From the sequence record OQ689735.1: a stretch of 64,000 bases of DNA; one strand, 5' to 3'. This stretch comes from Escherichia phage 4E10. Under the pieces are notes generated by a model. That model was given only the letters and a program-made list of their open reading frames with translations. It was not told the DNA's origin and did not search any database. Positions 2,907 through 26,047 of the stretch are shown here, piece by piece. The translations under genes and the position numbers were made by a program. How positions within the stretch are numbered: the stretch's first letter is position 1; every line of letters starts with the position of its first letter.

Positions 2907-4108
2907 TATTTTGTAATAATGTCAAACTGTTCTTTAAAGCAGAAGCTTGAATCTTGATGCTGATACAAAAATTCATATGCTTTTTCTCGCTCACGGTCAT
3001 AAAGAGCTCGGTCAGATGACAGTTCTTTAATACGCTCAAATGTTGATTCCATATCATTTTCATCAAACCAAATGATACCGCTATCATGCGAGGTCAAAGG
3101 AGTATTATCAACACGGAATTTTAAATTTTCGCCAGTAGATTTCCAGAAAACAGGAATTGTTCCACATGCACCAAGCTCGAGATGAGTATATTCTAAAGAA
3201 CGTTGTAGATATTTTTTATCCAACTTACTCAACTGATAACCAAAACCGGATTTACTCATACGTTCAAGCATTTCGCTATTTACATAACGGTCAAGAATTT
3301 GCGTTGGCAAATTAGGAGCAATTTTAATTTGGTCTACTTGATGAAGACGATAATACTCGTATGGAATTCCTTTTTCTTTAATAGGAATGAACGCTGGAGA
3401 ACGTTCCAGACCTTCCATAATAGTACTTAGTCCTGCAGGTTTAAGATGTTTTTCATGAAAATCAAACATCTGATAAAAACCTTTCCATGTAGTCGTGCGA
3501 CCAATCCAACGGTTGATATTCATGTTAATTTCAGAAACATCTTTCCAGTAGGTTGACCGAACCTTCGCAATATCCATAGGAGGCTGAAAGTTATATACGG
3601 TCGGTGCTTCTTCAATATCATCAAACAGAGAAACAGTTTCTGGATACCATTCTTTCATCAGAACTTTATTAAAATCGCCATTATCAGAATGGCTAAAAAT
3701 AACATCAGCTCGACGAACAGTTTCTTCTAATCCCAAATTTCGACGCAAAGAAAGAGAAGAATGGTCATGTTGATAAACTACAACACGAACAGAAGGTTTA
3801 ATGTTATCAATAATTTTTTTATAGTTATTAATAGTGTCTTCTTCAACCGAAGTAGCAGGAACTGAATTGATAATTAGAATATCACAATCATTTACCAGCT
3901 TAAGTGTTTTATCATATTCTTTTGCCAATAAAACCGGAATTGAAAATGATTTATAATCATGCGCGCAATTACGAGTAAATGATTTATCTTTAGCATAAAC
4001 CAAAGTTACTTCATGACCATTCTTAATAAACCAATCACGTTGCTCAAGAGAAAATTTAGTTACACCACAACCTTCAAGACCTCGAGCCATAAAAATACAT
4101 ACTTTCAT
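2906..4108 (-). CDS. agt: DNA alpha-glucosyltransferase
   Basis: 400 aa, MKVCIFMARGLEGCGVTKFSLEQRDWF...; near-identical to recalled T4 Agt with scattered substitutions. Confidence 0.9.
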   Translation of the reverse strand: MKVCIFMARGLEGCGVTKFSLEQRDWFIKNGHEVTLVYAKDKSFTRNCAHDYKSFSIPVLLAKEYDKTLKLVNDCDILIINSVPATSVEEDTINNYKKIIDNIKPSVRVVVYQHDHSSLSLRRNLGLEETVRRADVIFSHSDNGDFNKVLMKEWYPETVSLFDDIEEAPTVYNFQPPMDIAKVRSTYWKDVSEINMNINRWIGRTTTWKGFYQMFDFHEKHLKPAGLSTIMEGLERSPAFIPIKEKGIPYEYYRLHQVDQIKIAPNLPTQILDRYVNSEMLERMSKSGFGYQLSKLDKKYLQRSLEYTHLELGACGTIPVFWKSTGENLKFRVDNTPLTSHDSGIIWFDENDMESTFERIKELSSDRALYDREREKAYEFLYQHQDSSFCFKEQFDIITK

Positions 4109-4351: not shown

Positions 4352-4558
4352 TCATAATTGCCACCATTTTTTGACTTGATAAGAATCAACCCACACTTTC
4401 ATATTAGGGTCTGCTCTTACAATAGGAGGATTAACTTCTTTAATTGAACTATCATGGTATTCTTTTTCAGAAATTTTCACACAAAGATGACCATTCAAAG
4501 ATTCAGTAAATCCTGCATTAATTTTAAGACGCTTGAATTTTACGTGTGTAAGCATCAA
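4352..4558 (-). CDS. Hypothetical protein
   Basis: ORF track 68 aa; overlaps upstream ORF, start likely internal. Confidence 0.4.
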   Translation of the reverse strand: MMLTHVKFKRLKINAGFTESLNGHLCVKISEKEYHDSSIKEVNPPIVRADPNMKVWVDSYQVKKWWQL

Positions 4559-4841
4559 TCATATCCTCAATTTGCGATCTAGTAGTCTTCCAAAGAATAC
4601 TGATGAGTTCATCGTTATATGGCTGTTTTAGAATATCCCGACTTTTCTTGATAGCATATTCGTATTGAGCAAAATTATTGTTTTCAGCTGCGATCTGAGC
4701 GTGCTTATAAAGACGATTCAGTTCGCGTTTGTTTTTAGACAATAACTTATTTGCTTTTCTTTCTGCTTCAAGACGGTTCTTTTCTTCAATAGAAGAAATA
4801 AGCTTTTCCACTTCATCATTAATTTCGGGTTTATCAGTCAT
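4524..4841 (-). CDS. Hypothetical protein (predicted helical)
   Basis: ORF track 105 aa, co-directional and tightly packed. Confidence 0.5.
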   Translation of the reverse strand: MTDKPEINDEVEKLISSIEEKNRLEAERKANKLLSKNKRELNRLYKHAQIAAENNNFAQYEYAIKKSRDILKQPYNDELISILWKTTRSQIEDMIDAYTRKIQAS

Positions 4842-7177: not shown

Positions 7178-7352
7178 GGAGTTTAATTTCCTTAGCAACT
7201 GAACTAAATACAGCACGGTCACAAATCATGTGTTTATGTAACTTAAGTATAATATAGCAAACTTCAAAACTATTTACATGAGTAACACGAACAGCATTAC
7301 CATTAATAAAATAATACTGTCCCTTTTTAATTTCTTTATCAACCACAACCAT
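7170..7352 (-). CDS. Hypothetical protein
   Basis: ORF track 60 aa, first gene downstream of the early promoter at 7383-7413. Confidence 0.45.
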   Translation of the reverse strand: MVVVDKEIKKGQYYFINGNAVRVTHVNSFEVCYIILKLHKHMICDRAVFSSVAKEIKLHG

Positions 7353-7382
7353 ATCAAATCCTCAAAGGCAATTCATATGTTA

Positions 7383-7413
7383 ATAATACCACGGTTTGAA
7401 CTTGTTGTAAACA
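7383..7413 (-). promoter_or_regulatory. T4-type early promoter
   Basis: Minus strand GTTTAC, 19 nt spacer, TGG-TATTAT. Confidence 0.55.
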
Positions 7414-7480
7414 ACTTTGTGAAAATATTTTAGGGAATGACAAGAAGGGAACGATAGCTTAGAATGGTAATATACAGAAT

Positions 7481-7505
7481 GCGAGAAAGAAAGGCCCAGA
7501 GGGCC
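7481..7505 (-). terminator. Rho-independent terminator downstream of nrdH
   Basis: Minus strand GGCCC-TCT-GGGCC followed by TTTCTTTCT. Confidence 0.5.
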
Positions 7506-7509
7506 CGTC

Positions 7510-7833
7510 TTAATCTTCTATGATATCTCTATCATATCCAAGTGAAATGAGAGTTTCTTTGAAGTGTTTAATGTTCTTTTGCCTAGAATCATTAATGAAA
7601 ATGACCGGATACCGAATATTAAGAGATGTGAATCCGGCGCGTTTGGCAAGAGATACAATCAGTGGACGATCATACTCAATCTTACCATTATTAGTAAGAA
7701 CTTTATAGAAAGTAAAAGGAGCATTGAGCTCCTTTAGAAGTTTTGTAACTGATTGACATCCAGGACAACGACCTACTTCATCTGGAATTCCATAGACTTC
7801 AATCTTATTCTTTAAGTTCGAGTTTTGTTCCAC
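7510..7833 (-). CDS. nrdH: Glutaredoxin/NrdH-like redoxin (CxxC thioredoxin fold)
   Basis: KIEVYGIPDEVGRCPGCQSVTKLL motif; ORF track extends to 7962 but a GTG at 7833 has an AAGGAA site 9 nt upstream. Start is uncertain. Confidence 0.55.
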   Translation of the reverse strand: MEQNSNLKNKIEVYGIPDEVGRCPGCQSVTKLLKELNAPFTFYKVLTNNGKIEYDRPLIVSLAKRAGFTSLNIRYPVIFINDSRQKNIKHFKETLISLGYDRDIIED

Positions 7834-8116
7834 GAGAAATAATTCCTTGGTAAGCCCAATAAGGAGGATTAACAGAATCCTCACCAGAGTTTTCTTCAGG
7901 AAAATAAACCTGGATAACGAAGCCGGATTCATCAAAGGTAAAATAAACCGTAGGCAGTTCACCTAACAAATCGGCACGAGCGTTGATTTCTTCGAGGTCT
8001 TGTTCACGTCCAGCCCAGAAGCTTGGGTTCAGACTACATTCATAGAAATAATAGTCATTACCGAACATATCAAAACCATTCCAACTCTCTACTACATACC
8101 GCTCAAAACTAATCAT
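7805..8116 (-). CDS. Hypothetical protein
   Basis: ORF track 103 aa. Confidence 0.5.
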   Translation of the reverse strand: MISFERYVVESWNGFDMFGNDYYFYECSLNPSFWAGREQDLEEINARADLLGELPTVYFTFDESGFVIQVYFPEENSGEDSVNPPYWAYQGIISRGTKLELKE

Positions 8117-21022: not shown

Positions 21023-21544
21023 TTATCCTTTCATTGAAGGCGTAACGGTTGTTAAATACTTAATCATAGCTTCAGCTTCTGATTTTGATAATGAAATTTC
21101 TCCATTGTTTTGACGAATAGAAATAAAATCCGGATGACGGTCACCACCAGCTTTTAAAACACACATATAAGTATCAGTTTCACCTTCAATATTTGAAATG
21201 ATTGAAGCAGTTCCACATGAATGCGGTTTTTGATAAATCAATGCAGCTTTTCTTCCGCCATTTGACTGCTCATAGGCTTTTAATACATCAAGCAAATCAG
21301 TTCTTTTATCAATAGCTAAAATGTTATTTTCATCTTCAATGTTAAATCCTTCGGATACTTCATAAAGTGTTACCCATAAATCACCAATGTCAATAACAGC
21401 ATTTACTTTTCCACGGCTTTCAAGAGTATGACAAATTTTCTTGATTTCGTCATAACTCATTTTAATAATATCATCTCCTTGACTAAGGAAGATGTCATTT
21501 TTAAATTCAACACGAATTAAACCGCTTCCACTTGAAATAAACAT
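21023..21544 (-). CDS. Hypothetical protein (paralog of 21551-22093)
   Basis: 173 aa; C-terminus EAMIKYLTTVTPSMKG resembles the neighbour's AIALKTYLDSVIPTMISK. Confidence 0.5.
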   Translation of the reverse strand: MFISSGSGLIRVEFKNDIFLSQGDDIIKMSYDEIKKICHTLESRGKVNAVIDIGDLWVTLYEVSEGFNIEDENNILAIDKRTDLLDVLKAYEQSNGGRKAALIYQKPHSCGTASIISNIEGETDTYMCVLKAGGDRHPDFISIRQNNGEISLSKSEAEAMIKYLTTVTPSMKG

Positions 21545-21550
21545 ATTTCC

Positions 21551-22093
21551 TCACTTTGAAATCATAGTTGGAATGACAGAATCAAGATAAGTCTTTAGCG
21601 CAATAGCTTCGTCTTTGGTAAATGTGACAATATGTGCTCGAGAATCATCATTTTGGCGAACAAGTACGACATCGCCATCTTCATAAGAAGTCTTGACATC
21701 CAAAGTCGTAGTATAATTTGCAGCTACTGGATTAATAATGCTAGCACCGCGATCTTTAGCCCATTGAAGTTTAGCCTTTTCGGGTGTTTCGACTGTTTCA
21801 GATTCCAAGAATTCTTTCACCTTGGCAACGAATGTTGCCCAATTGTTGATAGAAAGACACGCAAGTTCAGTTTCAATATTACCACCGTGAGTGCCACGAT
21901 AAAAACGAACTTGGAGGTCGTCTGTAATATTAGTTACACAGGTAACTCCTGAGGGAGCATAAGATAAAATCGCAGGCAATTCCATAGGAAGAATAGTAAT
22001 ACTATCGTCTTCCTGCGTCAGAACGTATACATTACCACGTTTTTCGATAACCAGGTCACCGAACAAATCAGTTGTTTCAATTACAGCTTTCAT
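21551..22093 (-). CDS. Hypothetical protein (paralog of 21023-21544)
   Basis: ORF track 21551..22105; ATG at 22093. Confidence 0.5.
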   Translation of the reverse strand: MKAVIETTDLFGDLVIEKRGNVYVLTQEDDSITILPMELPAILSYAPSGVTCVTNITDDLQVRFYRGTHGGNIETELACLSINNWATFVAKVKEFLESETVETPEKAKLQWAKDRGASIINPVAANYTTTLDVKTSYEDGDVVLVRQNDDSRAHIVTFTKDEAIALKTYLDSVIPTMISK

Positions 22094-22094
22094 A

Positions 22095-22280
22095 TTATTT
22101 ACCAATTAAAGTTTCAATATAAGAATCAAGATTTACTTTAGCTTCTTCCATAAGAGTTTTGTATTTAATCTTGCTGGCATGTCCAGAAAAAGCTGATTCA
22201 TCAATAATTGTTGACGTATGAACAGCTTTACTATACGTCTCAATTAATTCTCTTAATTTAAAAGCCTGCTCACTTGTCAT
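22095..22280 (-). CDS. Small helical protein (small-paralog family)
   Basis: ORF track 61 aa. Confidence 0.45.
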   Translation of the reverse strand: MTSEQAFKLRELIETYSKAVHTSTIIDESAFSGHASKIKYKTLMEEAKVNLDSYIETLIGK

Positions 22281-22412
22281 TACATACTCCTCTGAATCAT
22301 ATCAATAATGTTGTTCACCAGATTATAAGTAAACATTGGGTAATTATATTGAATCATCACATACACAACAAACAAAACTTTCATTCTCTTCTCCTTGGCA
22401 GTTGACAAGATT

Positions 22413-22442
22413 ACTATACCATAACCTTGCCAACTTGTAAAC
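22413..22442 (-). promoter_or_regulatory. T4-type early promoter
   Basis: Minus strand GTTTAC, 18 nt, TGG-TATAGT. Confidence 0.5.
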
Positions 22443-22444
22443 CA

Positions 22445-22618
22445 TTAAATGACGTTTTCGATAAAATTCTGAAGCTTTGTATGAGCATCAACCATGATTT
22501 TCAATTCTTCTTTAGCGAAAGCCGTACCTCTTTCCCGAGCAGAATACTCATAGTCAGAAACTGCATTAGCATATTCTTCAATTAGCTTCATTAAAAACAT
22601 CTGCTTTTCAGTTTTCAT
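22445..22618 (-). CDS. Small helical protein (57 aa), below ORF-track cutoff
   Basis: ATG at 22618 preceded by AGGTGGAATA, the same initiation motif as the gene at 22805-23008. Confidence 0.4.
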   Translation of the reverse strand: MKTEKQMFLMKLIEEYANAVSDYEYSARERGTAFAKEELKIMVDAHTKLQNFIENVI

Positions 22619-22802
22619 TATTCCACCTAATCATTTCAAGATATTGAACTAACTTAGCTTTAGATTTATCCAAATCCCTTTTAGCTGATTCTATACCATC
22701 GTATGAATATCCTTCACAATGCTCAACTGCTAATTGGTATGAATCTATTTCAATATCATGCGCTAATTTAATGATTTTTTCAAACTGTTCACGTGTTAGC
22801 AT
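22608..22802 (-). CDS. Small helical protein (small-paralog family)
   Basis: ORF track 64 aa. Confidence 0.5.
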   Translation of the reverse strand: MLTREQFEKIIKLAHDIEIDSYQLAVEHCEGYSYDGIESAKRDLDKSKAKLVQYLEMIRWNNEN

Positions 22803-22804
22803 AA

Positions 22805-23008
22805 TTAAACTCTCGTATTATGATCGATAATTTCATCAAGAAACATATCTAACGCTTCTAAAGCATTATCAACTTTAGTTTCAAGTTCATCAATGCCTTT
22901 ATTTGCAATGCCTGATGAAAACCAAGCAAAGTCACTAAGTTCCTCATCTGCTTTACGAATTAAAGCTACCAATTCCTTAATTTTATCCGCTTGTTCGATA
23001 CTAATCAT
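22805..23008 (-). CDS. Small acidic helical protein (small-paralog family)
   Basis: ORF track 22805..23044; ATG at 23008 with GGTGGAATA site; TAATG overlap with upstream gene. Confidence 0.5.
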   Translation of the reverse strand: MISIEQADKIKELVALIRKADEELSDFAWFSSGIANKGIDELETKVDNALEALDMFLDEIIDHNTRV

Positions 23009-23196
23009 TATTCCACCACATATGAAAGAGAGAATATTGCACATGCCATGTGAGTTGCAACTTCATCACACATATTATAGCGTTTCTTAAGAAGTTCTAC
23101 AAGTTCTTCACTAGTAACTTCATCCATGTCGACGAAAAAATCACCATTAATGATGACGTAGATATTTCCTTCTTGATTGAGTGCTTCAATTTTCAT
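23008..23196 (-). CDS. Small hypothetical protein
   Basis: ORF track 23008..23343 includes translated promoter; real start [10 protein letters not shown] at 23196 with AAGAGGAGAA site. Confidence 0.45.
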
Positions 23197-23224
23197 GATG
23201 TTCTCCTCTTTATCCGATAGTTGT

Positions 23225-23254
23225 ATAGTACCACAGCTCAAACGGAAAGTAAAC
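23225..23254 (-). promoter_or_regulatory. T4-type early promoter (conserved module)
   Basis: Minus strand GTTTAC, 18 nt, TGG-TACTAT, conserved leader. Confidence 0.55.
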
Positions 23255-23264
23255 CGGTAAAATG

Positions 23265-23285
23265 AAAAAGTCTCCCGAAGGAGAC
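23265..23285 (-). terminator. Rho-independent terminator
   Basis: Minus strand GTCTCC-TTCG-GGAGAC followed by TTTTTC. Confidence 0.65.
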
Positions 23286-23290
23286 TAATG

Positions 23291-23677
23291 TTATTCGAGG
23301 GAAAGAAGATACTTACTCTGGTAAAACATTCCAGTAATATCATCTATCGTGCTTTGGATGGCTGGAGGCATTTCTTTATAAATGCTGTTAGATTGGTCTA
23401 GTATGCGATCAATCATTTTAATTGTGTCGGTAGGAAGTTTACTGGCATCTGGAATTGAAGGTGTGTATTTTCTACCAGAATACCCCAAATATTGCTCACC
23501 AAATTTATCAATCAAATCTGGTAACTCGGAGAAAATAAAATCGTATGCTTTGTGTCTAGCATAATTTTTAGTTTCAAAATGTGCAGAATGAAAATAAGCT
23601 TGTGCAGCCATTAATAAACCTAAGTATTCATCTGCCTTTGAAGGTTTTCCACTTTGTGAAAAGTCGCTGAATTTCAT
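23291..23677 (-). CDS. Hypothetical protein (rI.-1 position)
   Basis: 128 aa immediately downstream of rI; terminator after its stop. Confidence 0.5.
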
Positions 23678-23967
23678 TCAGTCTCCAATTTAATGTTCAT
23701 AATTTTAGCGTATGATTGTGCCATCTCCGCGCCTCGTTCTATACATTCAAAATCAGAAGAGCACGGGTCATTTTTATAGGTCGTTCTCATAAAACTATAG
23801 AATTGTTCAGACGATTCTACGCTTTTATTTTCAAAAAGCATATAAACGTGCCTAATACCAGATTCCATAAATTTATCAAAATGAGGATCGACATTCGCTT
23901 CAATCGATGGAGATAAAACAAATGACAATCCTAGCATGGCAAATAGTGCCGTTGCTTTTAAGGCCAT
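23674..23967 (-). CDS. rI: Lysis-inhibition regulator rI (signal-anchored periplasmic protein)
   Basis: 97 aa, MALKATALFAMLGLSFVLSPSIEANVDPHFDKFMESG...; matches recalled T4 RI. Confidence 0.9.
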   Translation of the reverse strand: MALKATALFAMLGLSFVLSPSIEANVDPHFDKFMESGIRHVYMLFENKSVESSEQFYSFMRTTYKNDPCSSDFECIERGAEMAQSYAKIMNIKLETE

Positions 23968-23979
23968 AAAGGCCTCCTA

Positions 23980-24192
23980 TCATTTTTGTCCTGTATTTAC
24001 TTTATGCCGATGCACGGCCTTAACTTTATCAAGGTATTTTTCAAAATTTCGCAATCTAGTATAGTCTGCCGGAGATTGGTTGAGTGATACTTCTCGACGC
24101 AAAGCTGAAATGATATTTCCAACTTCCCTACGAATTTCATCTAATTGAAGAACAGTAAGATTGCGAAGTTGCTTTTCAGTTAATTGTAGCAT
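23980..24192 (-). CDS. Hypothetical protein
   Basis: ORF track 70 aa. Confidence 0.5.
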
Positions 24193-24234
24193 ATATACCC
24201 CTTTAGTTAGATAAACCTATTTATAACTTTTGCA

Positions 24235-24816
24235 CTAACCGAGCTTTTTAGTTAATTCATTCCAATGTTTTCTGCACAAAGAAACATAAATTTCATCACC
24301 AATACAGATTTGATTACCTTCTTTAACAGGCGTTCCATCTTCCATTAATCGAGCTGTCATAATCGCTTTTTTACCACAATGACAAACTGCCTTTAGTTCA
24401 ATAAGTTTATCTGCAATCGCCAAAAGCTCTTTAGAACCTTCAAATAATTTTCCAGCGAAATCAGTCCTTAGCCCATAAGCCATAACAGGAACATTATATG
24501 TATCAACAATTCGGCTTAATTGATGCACCTGTTCAGTTTTTAAAAACTGAGCTTCATCTACAAATACACAATGAATATCTTTTTGTGCTTCAGCCCATTT
24601 GTAGAACTCAAAAATATCCATATCATCCGTAATAATATTCGCTTCCTGTTTAATTCCAATGCGAGAAACGACTTCACAGACAGAATCGCGAGTATCAATA
24701 GCAGGCTTAAGAACTAATACACCCATTCCGCGTTCTTTATAATTATGCGCAGCAGTCAAAAGAGAAGCAGATTTTCCAGCATTCATTGCCGCATAAGTAA
24801 AAATTAAACTCGCCAT
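24235..24816 (-). CDS. tk: Thymidine kinase
   Basis: 193 aa, MASLIFTYAAMNAGKSASLL (P-loop) and zinc-ribbon Cys; matches recalled T4 Tk. Confidence 0.93.
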   Translation of the reverse strand: MASLIFTYAAMNAGKSASLLTAAHNYKERGMGVLVLKPAIDTRDSVCEVVSRIGIKQEANIITDDMDIFEFYKWAEAQKDIHCVFVDEAQFLKTEQVHQLSRIVDTYNVPVMAYGLRTDFAGKLFEGSKELLAIADKLIELKAVCHCGKKAIMTARLMEDGTPVKEGNQICIGDEIYVSLCRKHWNELTKKLG

Positions 24817-24825
24817 ATCACCTTC

Positions 24826-25011
24826 TTAAAGCGTATTCACATAAGCTATTAATTCGTTTTCTTTCTTATCAAACCGATCAGCAAATTCTTCTTGCTGATC
24901 GGGAGATAGCGGGCCATATTCATCATAAAAGGTGTTTGCTTCTGTATGCTCATCTAGAAGTTCATGGATAAGCTCAAACAATTTATCTTTTTGTTCTTTG
25001 CTTAGGCTCAC
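24826..25011 (-). CDS. Small acidic helical protein (small-paralog family)
   Basis: ORF track 61 aa, MSLSKEQKDKLFELIHELLDEH. Confidence 0.5.
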   Translation of the reverse strand: MSLSKEQKDKLFELIHELLDEHTEANTFYDEYGPLSPDQQEEFADRFDKKENELIAYVNTL

Positions 25012-25180
25012 AGTATGTCAATCCCCAAAAGTTTTAAAATGACTCGTTTCTGATTCATAACCGCTACGATTGAATGACCGTTGGGGTCTTTTTGACCTGA
25101 TCCAATTATAAATCCTTTTTGCGCAGAAAGTTCAATCAAAACATCAAGTTCACGTAATAATTGATATTTTAAATCATCAT

Positions 25181-25408
25181 TCATTTTGGTTTACCTTCTT
25201 TAACGAAATCAGGATAAGGATAAAATCCTGAATAAAATCCTTCACCTTTATGATTGATGCATCCTTTATTAGAACAATAGCACCAATAATCGAAATCACA
25301 AGCCATTTCATCGTTGCATAAAGCAAAAACAACCGGCCACTTACACTTTTCACAGTGGGCATTTTTAAGAATACTAGTTTGGCTCATAACCATGTAACCT
25401 TTAAGCAA
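25181..25408 (-). CDS. Cys-rich small protein (putative zinc binding)
   Basis: ORF track 75 aa; CEKCKW...CNDEMACDFDYWCYCSNKGC. Confidence 0.45.
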   Translation of the reverse strand: MLKGYMVMSQTSILKNAHCEKCKWPVVFALCNDEMACDFDYWCYCSNKGCINHKGEGFYSGFYPYPDFVKEGKPK

Positions 25409-25596
25409 TATTCTTCTACATGTTGTTTACGACCTTTCCTATCAATAAAGGTATATTCAACGAATGTTCCAATATAGTCTTTATCTACATCATGTGGACT
25501 ATTAATTGGGCATTTAGTACGGCAAATGCGTTCCCATTGACGAATAATTACTGCTTTGTTTTTAGGATCAAACGGATGCGGGTAATGTACTTTCAT
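25384..25596 (-). CDS. Hypothetical protein
   Basis: ORF track 70 aa. Confidence 0.45.
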   Translation of the reverse strand: MKVHYPHPFDPKNKAVIIRQWERICRTKCPINSPHDVDKDYIGTFVEYTFIDRKGRKQHVEEYCLKVTWL

Positions 25597-26047
25597 AATC
25601 CACCACTATTAAATCAATATCAGGAGTAAACATACCGATTAATTTAGAAACCTTATCCCAATCGCCGCCAGCAATACCACAACCTATGCGTGGAATGTAA
25701 ATTACCGGTTTAAACAAAAGGATTTCTGCCTGTAGATTTAATTCTATCATGCAGTTTACTAAAGCACCATAATCAAGATTAGGACCCGGTTCGTATTGCG
25801 TATACAAATTATAGCATATACCAAATCCCGTAGGATTATGTTTAAAAACAATAGACATATCGCCTAATTTATCACGAGAACCGTACTCGGTAGTGGTTTT
25901 ATCTATTTCTAAAATTTTGGGATAGGCTCTTGCTAATTGACCTGCTACGCCAGAGCCCATTGTGTGGAAGCAATTGCACCCGTGCGCAATAATATTACCT
26001 TGAAGAAATAGGGCGACAATATCGCCCTTGATATATTTTACAATCAT
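25568..26047 (-). CDS. Macro-domain (ADP-ribose binding/processing) protein
   Basis: GDIV...IAHGCNCFHTMGSGVAGQLARAYP and IYIPRIGCGIAGGDW resemble the two conserved macro-domain loops; 159 aa. Confidence 0.6.
   Translation of the reverse strand: MIVKYIKGDIVALFLQGNIIAHGCNCFHTMGSGVAGQLARAYPKILEIDKTTTEYGSRDKLGDMSIVFKHNPTGFGICYNLYTQYEPGPNLDYGALVNCMIELNLQAEILLFKPVIYIPRIGCGIAGGDWDKVSKLIGMFTPDIDLIVVDYESTLPASV

Follow-up and report, generated by a model that had tools for sequence, protein, structure and literature searches.

A DUF7438 paralog family of predicted helical hairpins around rI and tk of the T4-like phage 4E10

T4 is the best-studied virulent phage, and about half of its genes are without an assigned role. 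Its proteins MobD.2a, MobD.3, MobD.4, Tk.1 and Tk.2 belong to DUF7438 (Pfam PF24219), an already catalogued domain family of unknown function that extends over PHROGs groups 653, 2758 and 4859; it is one of the few multi-copy families of T4, with five copies in T4 itself and up to six in relatives. Here we describe five open reading frames (ORFs) around the genes rI and tk in a 64,000-nucleotide stretch of Escherichia phage 4E10 (OQ689735.1; the window, to whose first letter all coordinates refer), which are almost certainly anciently diverged paralogs of this phage-only, single-domain family and thus of the same kind as the T4 proteins. Four of them are the counterparts of genes already named in T4, namely of MobD.2a, MobD.3, MobD.4 and Tk.2; compared to the T4 set, the window has an extra copy (the accessory copy in the following) and a single Tk.2-type gene instead of the Tk.1 and Tk.2 pair. 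DUF7438 is a tractable multi-copy family in a model phage.

Outside the family, Rop, the repressor of primer of ColE1, is a 63-residue helical hairpin that dimerizes into a four-helix bundle. The models predicted for DUF7438 have the helical-hairpin fold in common with it, but there is no sequence relation at E <= 1 either in Pfam or in a sequence profile search of the PDB, and the acidity of DUF7438 argues against RNA binding. The top Foldseek match in the PDB is the DHp hairpin of histidine kinases (for example HK853), which is similar in its hairpin shape; the match is not significant (E 0.2), and DUF7438 lacks the phospho-acceptor histidine, His being the commonest residue in one variable column only (39%). 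DUF7438 proteins also stand alone, whereas a DHp hairpin is, to our knowledge, invariably found within a larger kinase. The small phage inhibitors are likewise small, restricted to phages and encoded in variable regions, and their direct binding is the mode that we propose for DUF7438 by analogy (PMC11257639; PMC12373910). Unlike the Ip proteins, which are packaged and injected, DUF7438 proteins are synthesized soon after infection.

The five ORFs were found on the minus strand, with lengths of 57-67 aa, as the first-pass annotation had read them (Table 1). In coordinate order, they match PF24219 with 57.3, 57.5, 65.7, 57.5 and 70.4 bits (E = 2e-15, 1.8e-15, 5e-18, 1.7e-15 and 1.7e-19), against a gathering cut-off of 25 bits, and they cover positions 1-56/57 of the 57 in the profile; the five T4 proteins likewise score above the cut-off from end to end, and the small ORFs taken as controls (MobD.5, rI.1 and ORF 25008-25184) have no match to PF24219. 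Comparison in pairs is far less sensitive: BLASTP in a five-sequence database yields 25-31% identity with E-values from 2e-4 to >0.1, and a permissive global alignment 24-44% identity. Since homology could not be proven by pairwise BLASTP alone, profiles were used.

Since the Pfam seed alignment may already include these paralogs, each paralog group was in turn omitted from the training of a family profile, with which all 700 ORFs of the window were then searched. The omitted copy was the best non-training ORF each time (E = 9.7e-8, 1.1e-3, 2e-7, 1.5e-8 and 3.5e-7 in coordinate order), with the best unrelated ORF at E 0.2-0.9. For a family hidden Markov model (HMM) built from 31 seeds, the five paralogs are the only hits in the 64 kb window at E <= 1, and no further member was found in the window by a five-sequence HMM either. 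The first-pass annotation had taken the five for similar short paralogs, to be checked by alignment and HMM building; the Pfam matches, the 31-seed HMM and the leave-one-out profiles agree on a single family, and the profiles recover every copy above the unrelated ORFs. Pairwise similarity, which it had also expected, is weak by BLASTP alone and goes beyond chance in the leave-one-out profiles.

Two of the shared properties it had listed hold for four copies out of five. The (S/T)xEQ motif is absent from MobD.2a, which has TEKQ in its place, and the proteins are acidic (pI 4.3-5.3) except for the accessory copy. Within PHROGs, the groups 653, 2758 and 4859 are linked by weaker cross-matches; the accessory copy matches phrog_4859 with E 7e-38. 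The MobD.2a protein of the window has 100% identity to one already catalogued (cluster P0004), and the Tk.2-type protein has 89% identity to the 'Tk.2' of JS10 (P0063) and 54-56% to Tk.2 of T4 and T6. The longest ORF of MobD.4 extends to 23044.

Table 1. DUF7438 paralogs of the window and associated features (coordinates of the whole stretch).
Feature	Coordinates	Strand	Remarks
Accessory DUF7438 paralog	22095..22280	-	61 aa; pI 6.06; absent from T4
MobD.2a counterpart	22445..22618	-	57 aa; most divergent copy; phrog_2758
MobD.3 counterpart	22608..22802	-	64 aa; phrog_653; annotated in Kha5h as 'similar to T4 MobD.3'
MobD.4 counterpart	22805..23008	-	67 aa from ATG at 23008; phrog_653
Tk.2-type gene	24826..25011	-	61 aa; GTG start; phrog_653; transcribed directly before tk
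Shared initiation region GGTGGAATAATGA, copy 1	22615..22627	-	MobD.2a; ribosome-binding site, spacer, ATG
Shared initiation region GGTGGAATAATGA, copy 2	23005..23017	-	MobD.4 start
MobD.5	23008..23196	-	opens the compact unit MobD.5-MobD.4-MobD.3-MobD.2a; phrog_3024; non-member, given for context
Promoter-like site before MobD.5-4-3-2a	23225..23254	-	GTTTAC, 18 nt, TGn-TACTAT; read from the sequence
Promoter-like site before MobD.2, accessory paralog and MobD.1	22413..22441	-	TTTACA, 17 nt, TATAGT with TG
Terminator-like GC-rich hairpin with T run	23269..23286	-	7 bp stem, 4 GC pairs, tail TTTTCATTTT; directly past rI.-1

The paralogs are translationally coupled to their upstream neighbors, as read from overlaps of starts and stops: the ATG of MobD.4 overlaps the stop of MobD.5 (TAATG), MobD.3 begins 2 nt past the stop of MobD.4, the start of MobD.2a overlaps the end of MobD.3 by 11 nt, the ATG of the accessory copy overlaps the stop of the small MobD.2 ORF (TAATG), and the GTG of the Tk.2-type gene overlaps the TGA stop of ORF 25008-25184 (GTGA). 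Two of these starts had been noted for an identical initiation region, which is indeed present and is one base longer than claimed: the 13 nt of GGTGGAATAATGA are exact at the starts of MobD.2a and MobD.4 and occur nowhere else in the window. At both starts they consist of the ribosome-binding site and the end of the upstream gene; the identity is therefore that of a ribosome-binding site with a stop/start overlap, and not a sign of recent duplication. No DNA-level repeat was found between the copies, so that the duplications must be old.

The start codon of the Tk.2-type gene (25009-25011, minus strand) is polymorphic, being GTG in the window and three further loci and ATG in three other close relatives. 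rI.1 (23980-24192, minus strand; 70 aa, basic) was tried as a sixth member and rejected, with an hhalign probability of 0.7% and no Pfam match; it begins with MLQLTEKQL, which contains the TEKQ of MobD.2a, and has a 12-nt identity with the start region of MobD.2a (22602-22613 and 24170-24181).

Selection on the five genes was estimated by the method of Nei and Gojobori over 5-14 Tequatrovirus loci, in which the reading frames are intact. The ratio of nonsynonymous to synonymous substitution rates (dN/dS) is 0.16 for the accessory copy, 0.08 for MobD.2a, 0.13 for MobD.3, 0.30 for MobD.4 and 0.04 for the Tk.2 type, and 0.08 and 0.22 for the T4-type Tk.2 and Tk.1; these values lie within the range of the neighboring genes (tk 0.01, rI 0.12, MobD.5 0.18). 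By region, the helices have a dN/dS of 0-0.2 and the middle one of 0.12-0.56, the highest in MobD.4 (helices 0.08 and 0.19, middle 0.56). Positive selection was found in no region, the loop included, the maximum being this 0.56, and MobD.3 is almost invariant over 14 loci. The five are real protein-coding accessory genes under purifying selection.

Expression is documented for the T4 counterparts in time-resolved omics data (PMC9697503 supplement), where mobD.3 and mobD.4 are early at the level of both RNA and protein, tk.1 and tk.2 are early as RNA and middle as protein, and mobD.2a is early as RNA with no protein detected. The early expression expected in the first-pass annotation thus holds at the level of RNA for all T4 counterparts, and four of the five T4 members have been detected as protein. 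Read as chance ORFs or as decaying, functionless remnants, the genes would fit their very short length, their weak pairwise similarity and the truncation of MobD.2a to 38 aa in the reference T4 annotation (P0104); against this stand dN/dS values of 0.04-0.30 with frames intact in 5-14 genomes, the four T4 proteins, profile matches over the full length and confident hairpin models. This explanation retains next to no probability and is effectively refuted by the T4 expression data and dN/dS.

The 38-aa MobD.2a of the reference T4 annotation also differs in its C-terminus. All 57 aa are encoded in the T4 assembly OZ209057 (locus 3169-3342) and in 12 further loci, which suggests that the T4 reference has either a frameshift or a sequencing error.

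That the proteins are helical, as had been suggested, is supported by AlphaFold2 models of two copies, both of which are two-helix hairpins: H5-32/H37-60 in the Tk.2-type copy (pLDDT 91.7) and H4-30/H36-55 in MobD.2a (pLDDT 95.5). As modeled, each is a hairpin of about 60 residues, whose two antiparallel helices are joined by a single heptad seam. In the family alignment, numbered by the residues of the Tk.2-type copy, the seam corresponds to the conserved hydrophobic residues L11, L14, I15, L18, A25 and Y29 of the first helix and F43, F47, L54, Y57, V58 and L61 of the second. The conserved polar residues, E6 (94%), Q7 (85%), K10 (69%) and N59 (61%), are close to the chain termini, and since both termini of a hairpin lie at its open end, they should cluster there. 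The sequence varies in the loop, in MobD.4 with insertions and deletions (indels) between phages.

A sequence profile search of the PDB (E <= 1) found no solved structure of any relative. Fold searches return generic hairpins only (Rop, DHp), and matches in a library of viral models are confined to uncharacterized small proteins, chiefly of enterobacterial phages. No enzymatic or nucleic-acid-binding signature was found, PADLOC has no match for the five among defense proteins, and NCBIfam yields no credible match, with two chance-level hits far under their cut-offs. The resemblance to Rop could be taken to mean that the proteins bind nucleic acids, as hairpin dimers on RNA or DNA structures that regulate early gene expression. 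This is very unlikely: the family is acidic (median pI 4.37, net charge down to -12), K10 is its sole conserved basic residue, and neither Rop nor any solved structure has a sequence match to it.

Two large searches (111 and 129 hits) found the family in phages only. The homologs are single-domain proteins of 53-78 aa; with fragments and read-throughs, which are the shortest and the longest hits, the range is from 29 to 112 aa. They include no informative domain fusion; P0006, examined as a candidate for one, is a read-through into MobD.2. Among 1.84 billion proteins, only 26 clusters (at 50% identity) contain members at E <= 1e-3. The genera with members are Tequatrovirus, Mosigvirus, Dhakavirus, Gaprivervirus and Jiaodavirus, and there is one in a Kuravirus podophage (47 bits). 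The first-pass annotation had described an amplified family scattered through the rI/tk region, and this is what is seen: the paralogs form two clusters, one on each side of rI-tk, and the copy number varies between one and six among related phages. The region from mobD to tk has six copies in PST, five each in 4E10, Kha5h, RB3, T4 and T2, four in KIT03 and in Mosigvirus SF, three in VR25, two or three in VR5, and one in Klebsiella phage ATCCa. The accessory type is present in 192 phage records, as against 588 for MobD.3; the DNA match of T4 to the window begins only at about 22277, leaving the accessory copy outside.

Beside tk, two mutually exclusive cassettes divide the 14 Tequatrovirus loci into halves. 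The T4-type Tk.1 and Tk.2 are present in seven; the other seven, the window (24826-25184) among them, have the unrelated ORF 25008-25184 (phrog_3452) followed by only one gene of the Tk.2 type. A protein of 50 aa in the family (P0125) is an in-frame Tk.2::Tk.1 chimera, in which residues 1-22 are those of T4 Tk.2 (21/22) and residues 23-50 those of the C-terminal 28 residues of T4 Tk.1 (27/28); a recombination deletion between adjacent paralogs would give this pattern.

Endonuclease genes lie beside members in three unrelated settings. In T4 this is mobD itself; in Dhakavirus VR5 an endonuclease gene (locus 7193-7930) stands between tk and Tk.2, and in Kuravirus XT18 there are HNH genes on both sides of the member (locus 3368-3769 and 4427-4792). 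From this recurrence one might regard the paralogs as flanking targets for insertion, or as passengers of homing endonucleases without a role of their own. We consider this highly improbable, for the region in the window has no endonuclease gene and has nevertheless kept five copies, selection on the proteins is purifying, and the proteins are made in T4; moreover, such adjacency is to be expected anyway where a region is plastic, and may mean nothing more than that. In XT18, the gene just upstream of the member encodes a small protein with a WYL-domain match of 21.2 bits, against a cut-off of 21.8.

The proteins are best taken for protein-binding modules, being acidic hairpins of some 60 residues that stand alone, show no catalytic or nucleic-acid signature and have conserved polar residues grouped at one end. 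Our tentative reading, which falls somewhat short of an even chance, is that the paralogs are small protein-binding modulators acting early in infection. They would be transcribed from early-type promoters and act stoichiometrically, by binding; early in infection the hairpin, as a monomer or as one half of a four-helix bundle, would dock onto a protein of the host or of the phage and modulate or block it. The polar patch of E6, Q7, K10 and N59 at the open end could then be the contact common to the family, and the variable loop and surface the parts that differ from paralog to paralog. Viable genome-reduced T4 can lose the block from nrdC.11 to mobD.3 (PMC9825161), and the genes are presumably dispensable on laboratory hosts. 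If the paralogs were indeed small protein inhibitors, they would bring a compact and easily engineered scaffold into the known repertoire of host takeover or counter-defense, and part of the variable nrdC-tk-vs region would be explained.

Several points weigh against such modulators. No binding partner is known for DUF7438 proteins, and full-text and supplement searches of the literature found no functional assignment; the genes are not named in the CRISPRi-ART supplement. The data on protein expression come from T4 and not from 4E10, and in T4 the MobD.2a protein was not detected. In a screen of Mosigvirus AV110, six of 45 early proteins were growth-inhibitory, the text being silent on DUF7438 homologs, and Gp94, the one inhibitor characterized there, is a 109-aa alpha/beta protein.

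The first-pass annotation had thought of host-takeover or anti-defense factors. The bound proteins might specifically belong to host immunity, each paralog blocking a different variant of an immune protein, by analogy to known counter-defense inhibitors. In favor of this, the genes are early and dispensable and occur in phages only, their presence and their cassettes vary between near-identical phages, the loop of MobD.4 is variable and has indels, and the region is plastic and close to other candidates, such as the Tk.4 macrodomain with its weak DarG-like match. There are also precedents, not homologous to each other, in T4 Ip1, Ip2 and Ip3, each against a different GmrSD enzyme, and in the small proteins AdfA and AdfB against DarT (PMC12373910; PMC11257639). 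However, the helices are strongly conserved, no region has a dN/dS above 1, which is unlike the signature of an arms race, and MobD.3 hardly changes over 14 loci; nor did we find any link between DUF7438 genes and a defense system in the literature. We therefore regard counter-defense as unlikely.

The wider form of this proposal would make DUF7438 a toolkit of interchangeable mini-inhibitors built on one hairpin scaffold, with E6, Q7, K10 and N59 as the conserved docking end and each copy neutralizing a different host protein, possibly an immune one; copies would be gained, lost, swapped and recombined (as in Tk.2::Tk.1) as hosts change. It is speculative, and improbable as it stands.

Alternatively, the paralogs could act on the machinery of the phage itself, either as assembly or regulatory subunits, or as hetero-dimeric four-helix bundles that vary between phages. 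The coupling of adjacent paralogs (MobD.4/MobD.3/MobD.2a here and Tk.2/Tk.1 in T4) favors co-expression at a fixed ratio, the helical seam is conserved in all paralogs, and the Tk.2::Tk.1 chimera shows that the halves are interchangeable. We doubt this explanation, since no partner is known, the block is dispensable in T4, and copies are freely lost and swapped between close relatives, which is a poor fit to an obligate complex.

For annotation, the result mainly tidies: five 'hypothetical' genes are tied to one curated family, and two misleading product names that are spreading in public records are now flagged. The 61-aa protein of the accessory type is labeled 'helicase loader' in phrog_4859 and in RefSeq records, without a match to a helicase-loader family such as T4 gp59 or DnaC in Pfam or NCBIfam; Pfam returned DUF7438 and one sub-threshold unrelated family, and NCBIfam one chance-level hit. 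Proteins of the MobD.1, MobD.3, MobD.4 and MobD.5 types carry the name 'Molybdopterin-guanine dinucleotide biosynthesis protein MobD', although neither database has a match to molybdenum-cofactor proteins of the MobA/MobB type; the name seems to come from a mix-up with mobD, the T4 symbol for a homing endonuclease gene.

The window is from the genome of a Tequatrovirus (T4-like) phage; over the region described here, the identity is 100% with Escherichia phage ECO95 1-6-1 and about 98% with many genomes of Tequatrovirus, Kha5h among them. All genes of the region are on the minus strand, in the transcription order ORF 25008-25184, Tk.2-type gene, tk, rI.1, rI, rI.-1, terminator-like hairpin, MobD.5, MobD.4, MobD.3, MobD.2a, promoter-like site, MobD.2, accessory copy, MobD.1-2, MobD.1-1, a membrane protein and nrdC.11. 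T4, Kha5h, RB3 and PST have a matching gene order, and synteny extends to T2 and others.

Two promoter-like sites precede paralogs in this order, with the common geometry GTTTAC, 18 nt, TGn-TAnnnT. The one before MobD.5 is a putative T4 early-type promoter, as judged from the early-promoter consensus; the one before MobD.2 is the top score of a promoter scan (10/12 matches, extended -10), which overall found no more sites than in shuffled sequence. The GC-rich hairpin with its T run parts the rI unit from the MobD.5-2a unit. Together, the two sites and the hairpin suggest two short early transcription units, one starting from MobD.5 and the other from MobD.2.

The Tk.4-type macrodomain protein (25568-26047, minus strand; 159 aa) matches the DarG antitoxin macrodomain NF048014 of NCBIfam with E 5e-6, far under the cut-off. 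T-even phages resist the DarTG2 defense by an unknown route (preprint, PMC11257639), for which the Tk.4-type gene may be considered a candidate. Directly downstream of the accessory copy, the two MobD.1-type genes (21023-21544 and 21551-22105, both on the minus strand) are tandem paralogs in their own right, where T4 has one MobD.1 only; they are 29% identical over 173 residues (E 9e-10) and have the C-terminal motif (S/T)K.EA.A(M/L).(K/T)YL..V.P(S/T)M in common.

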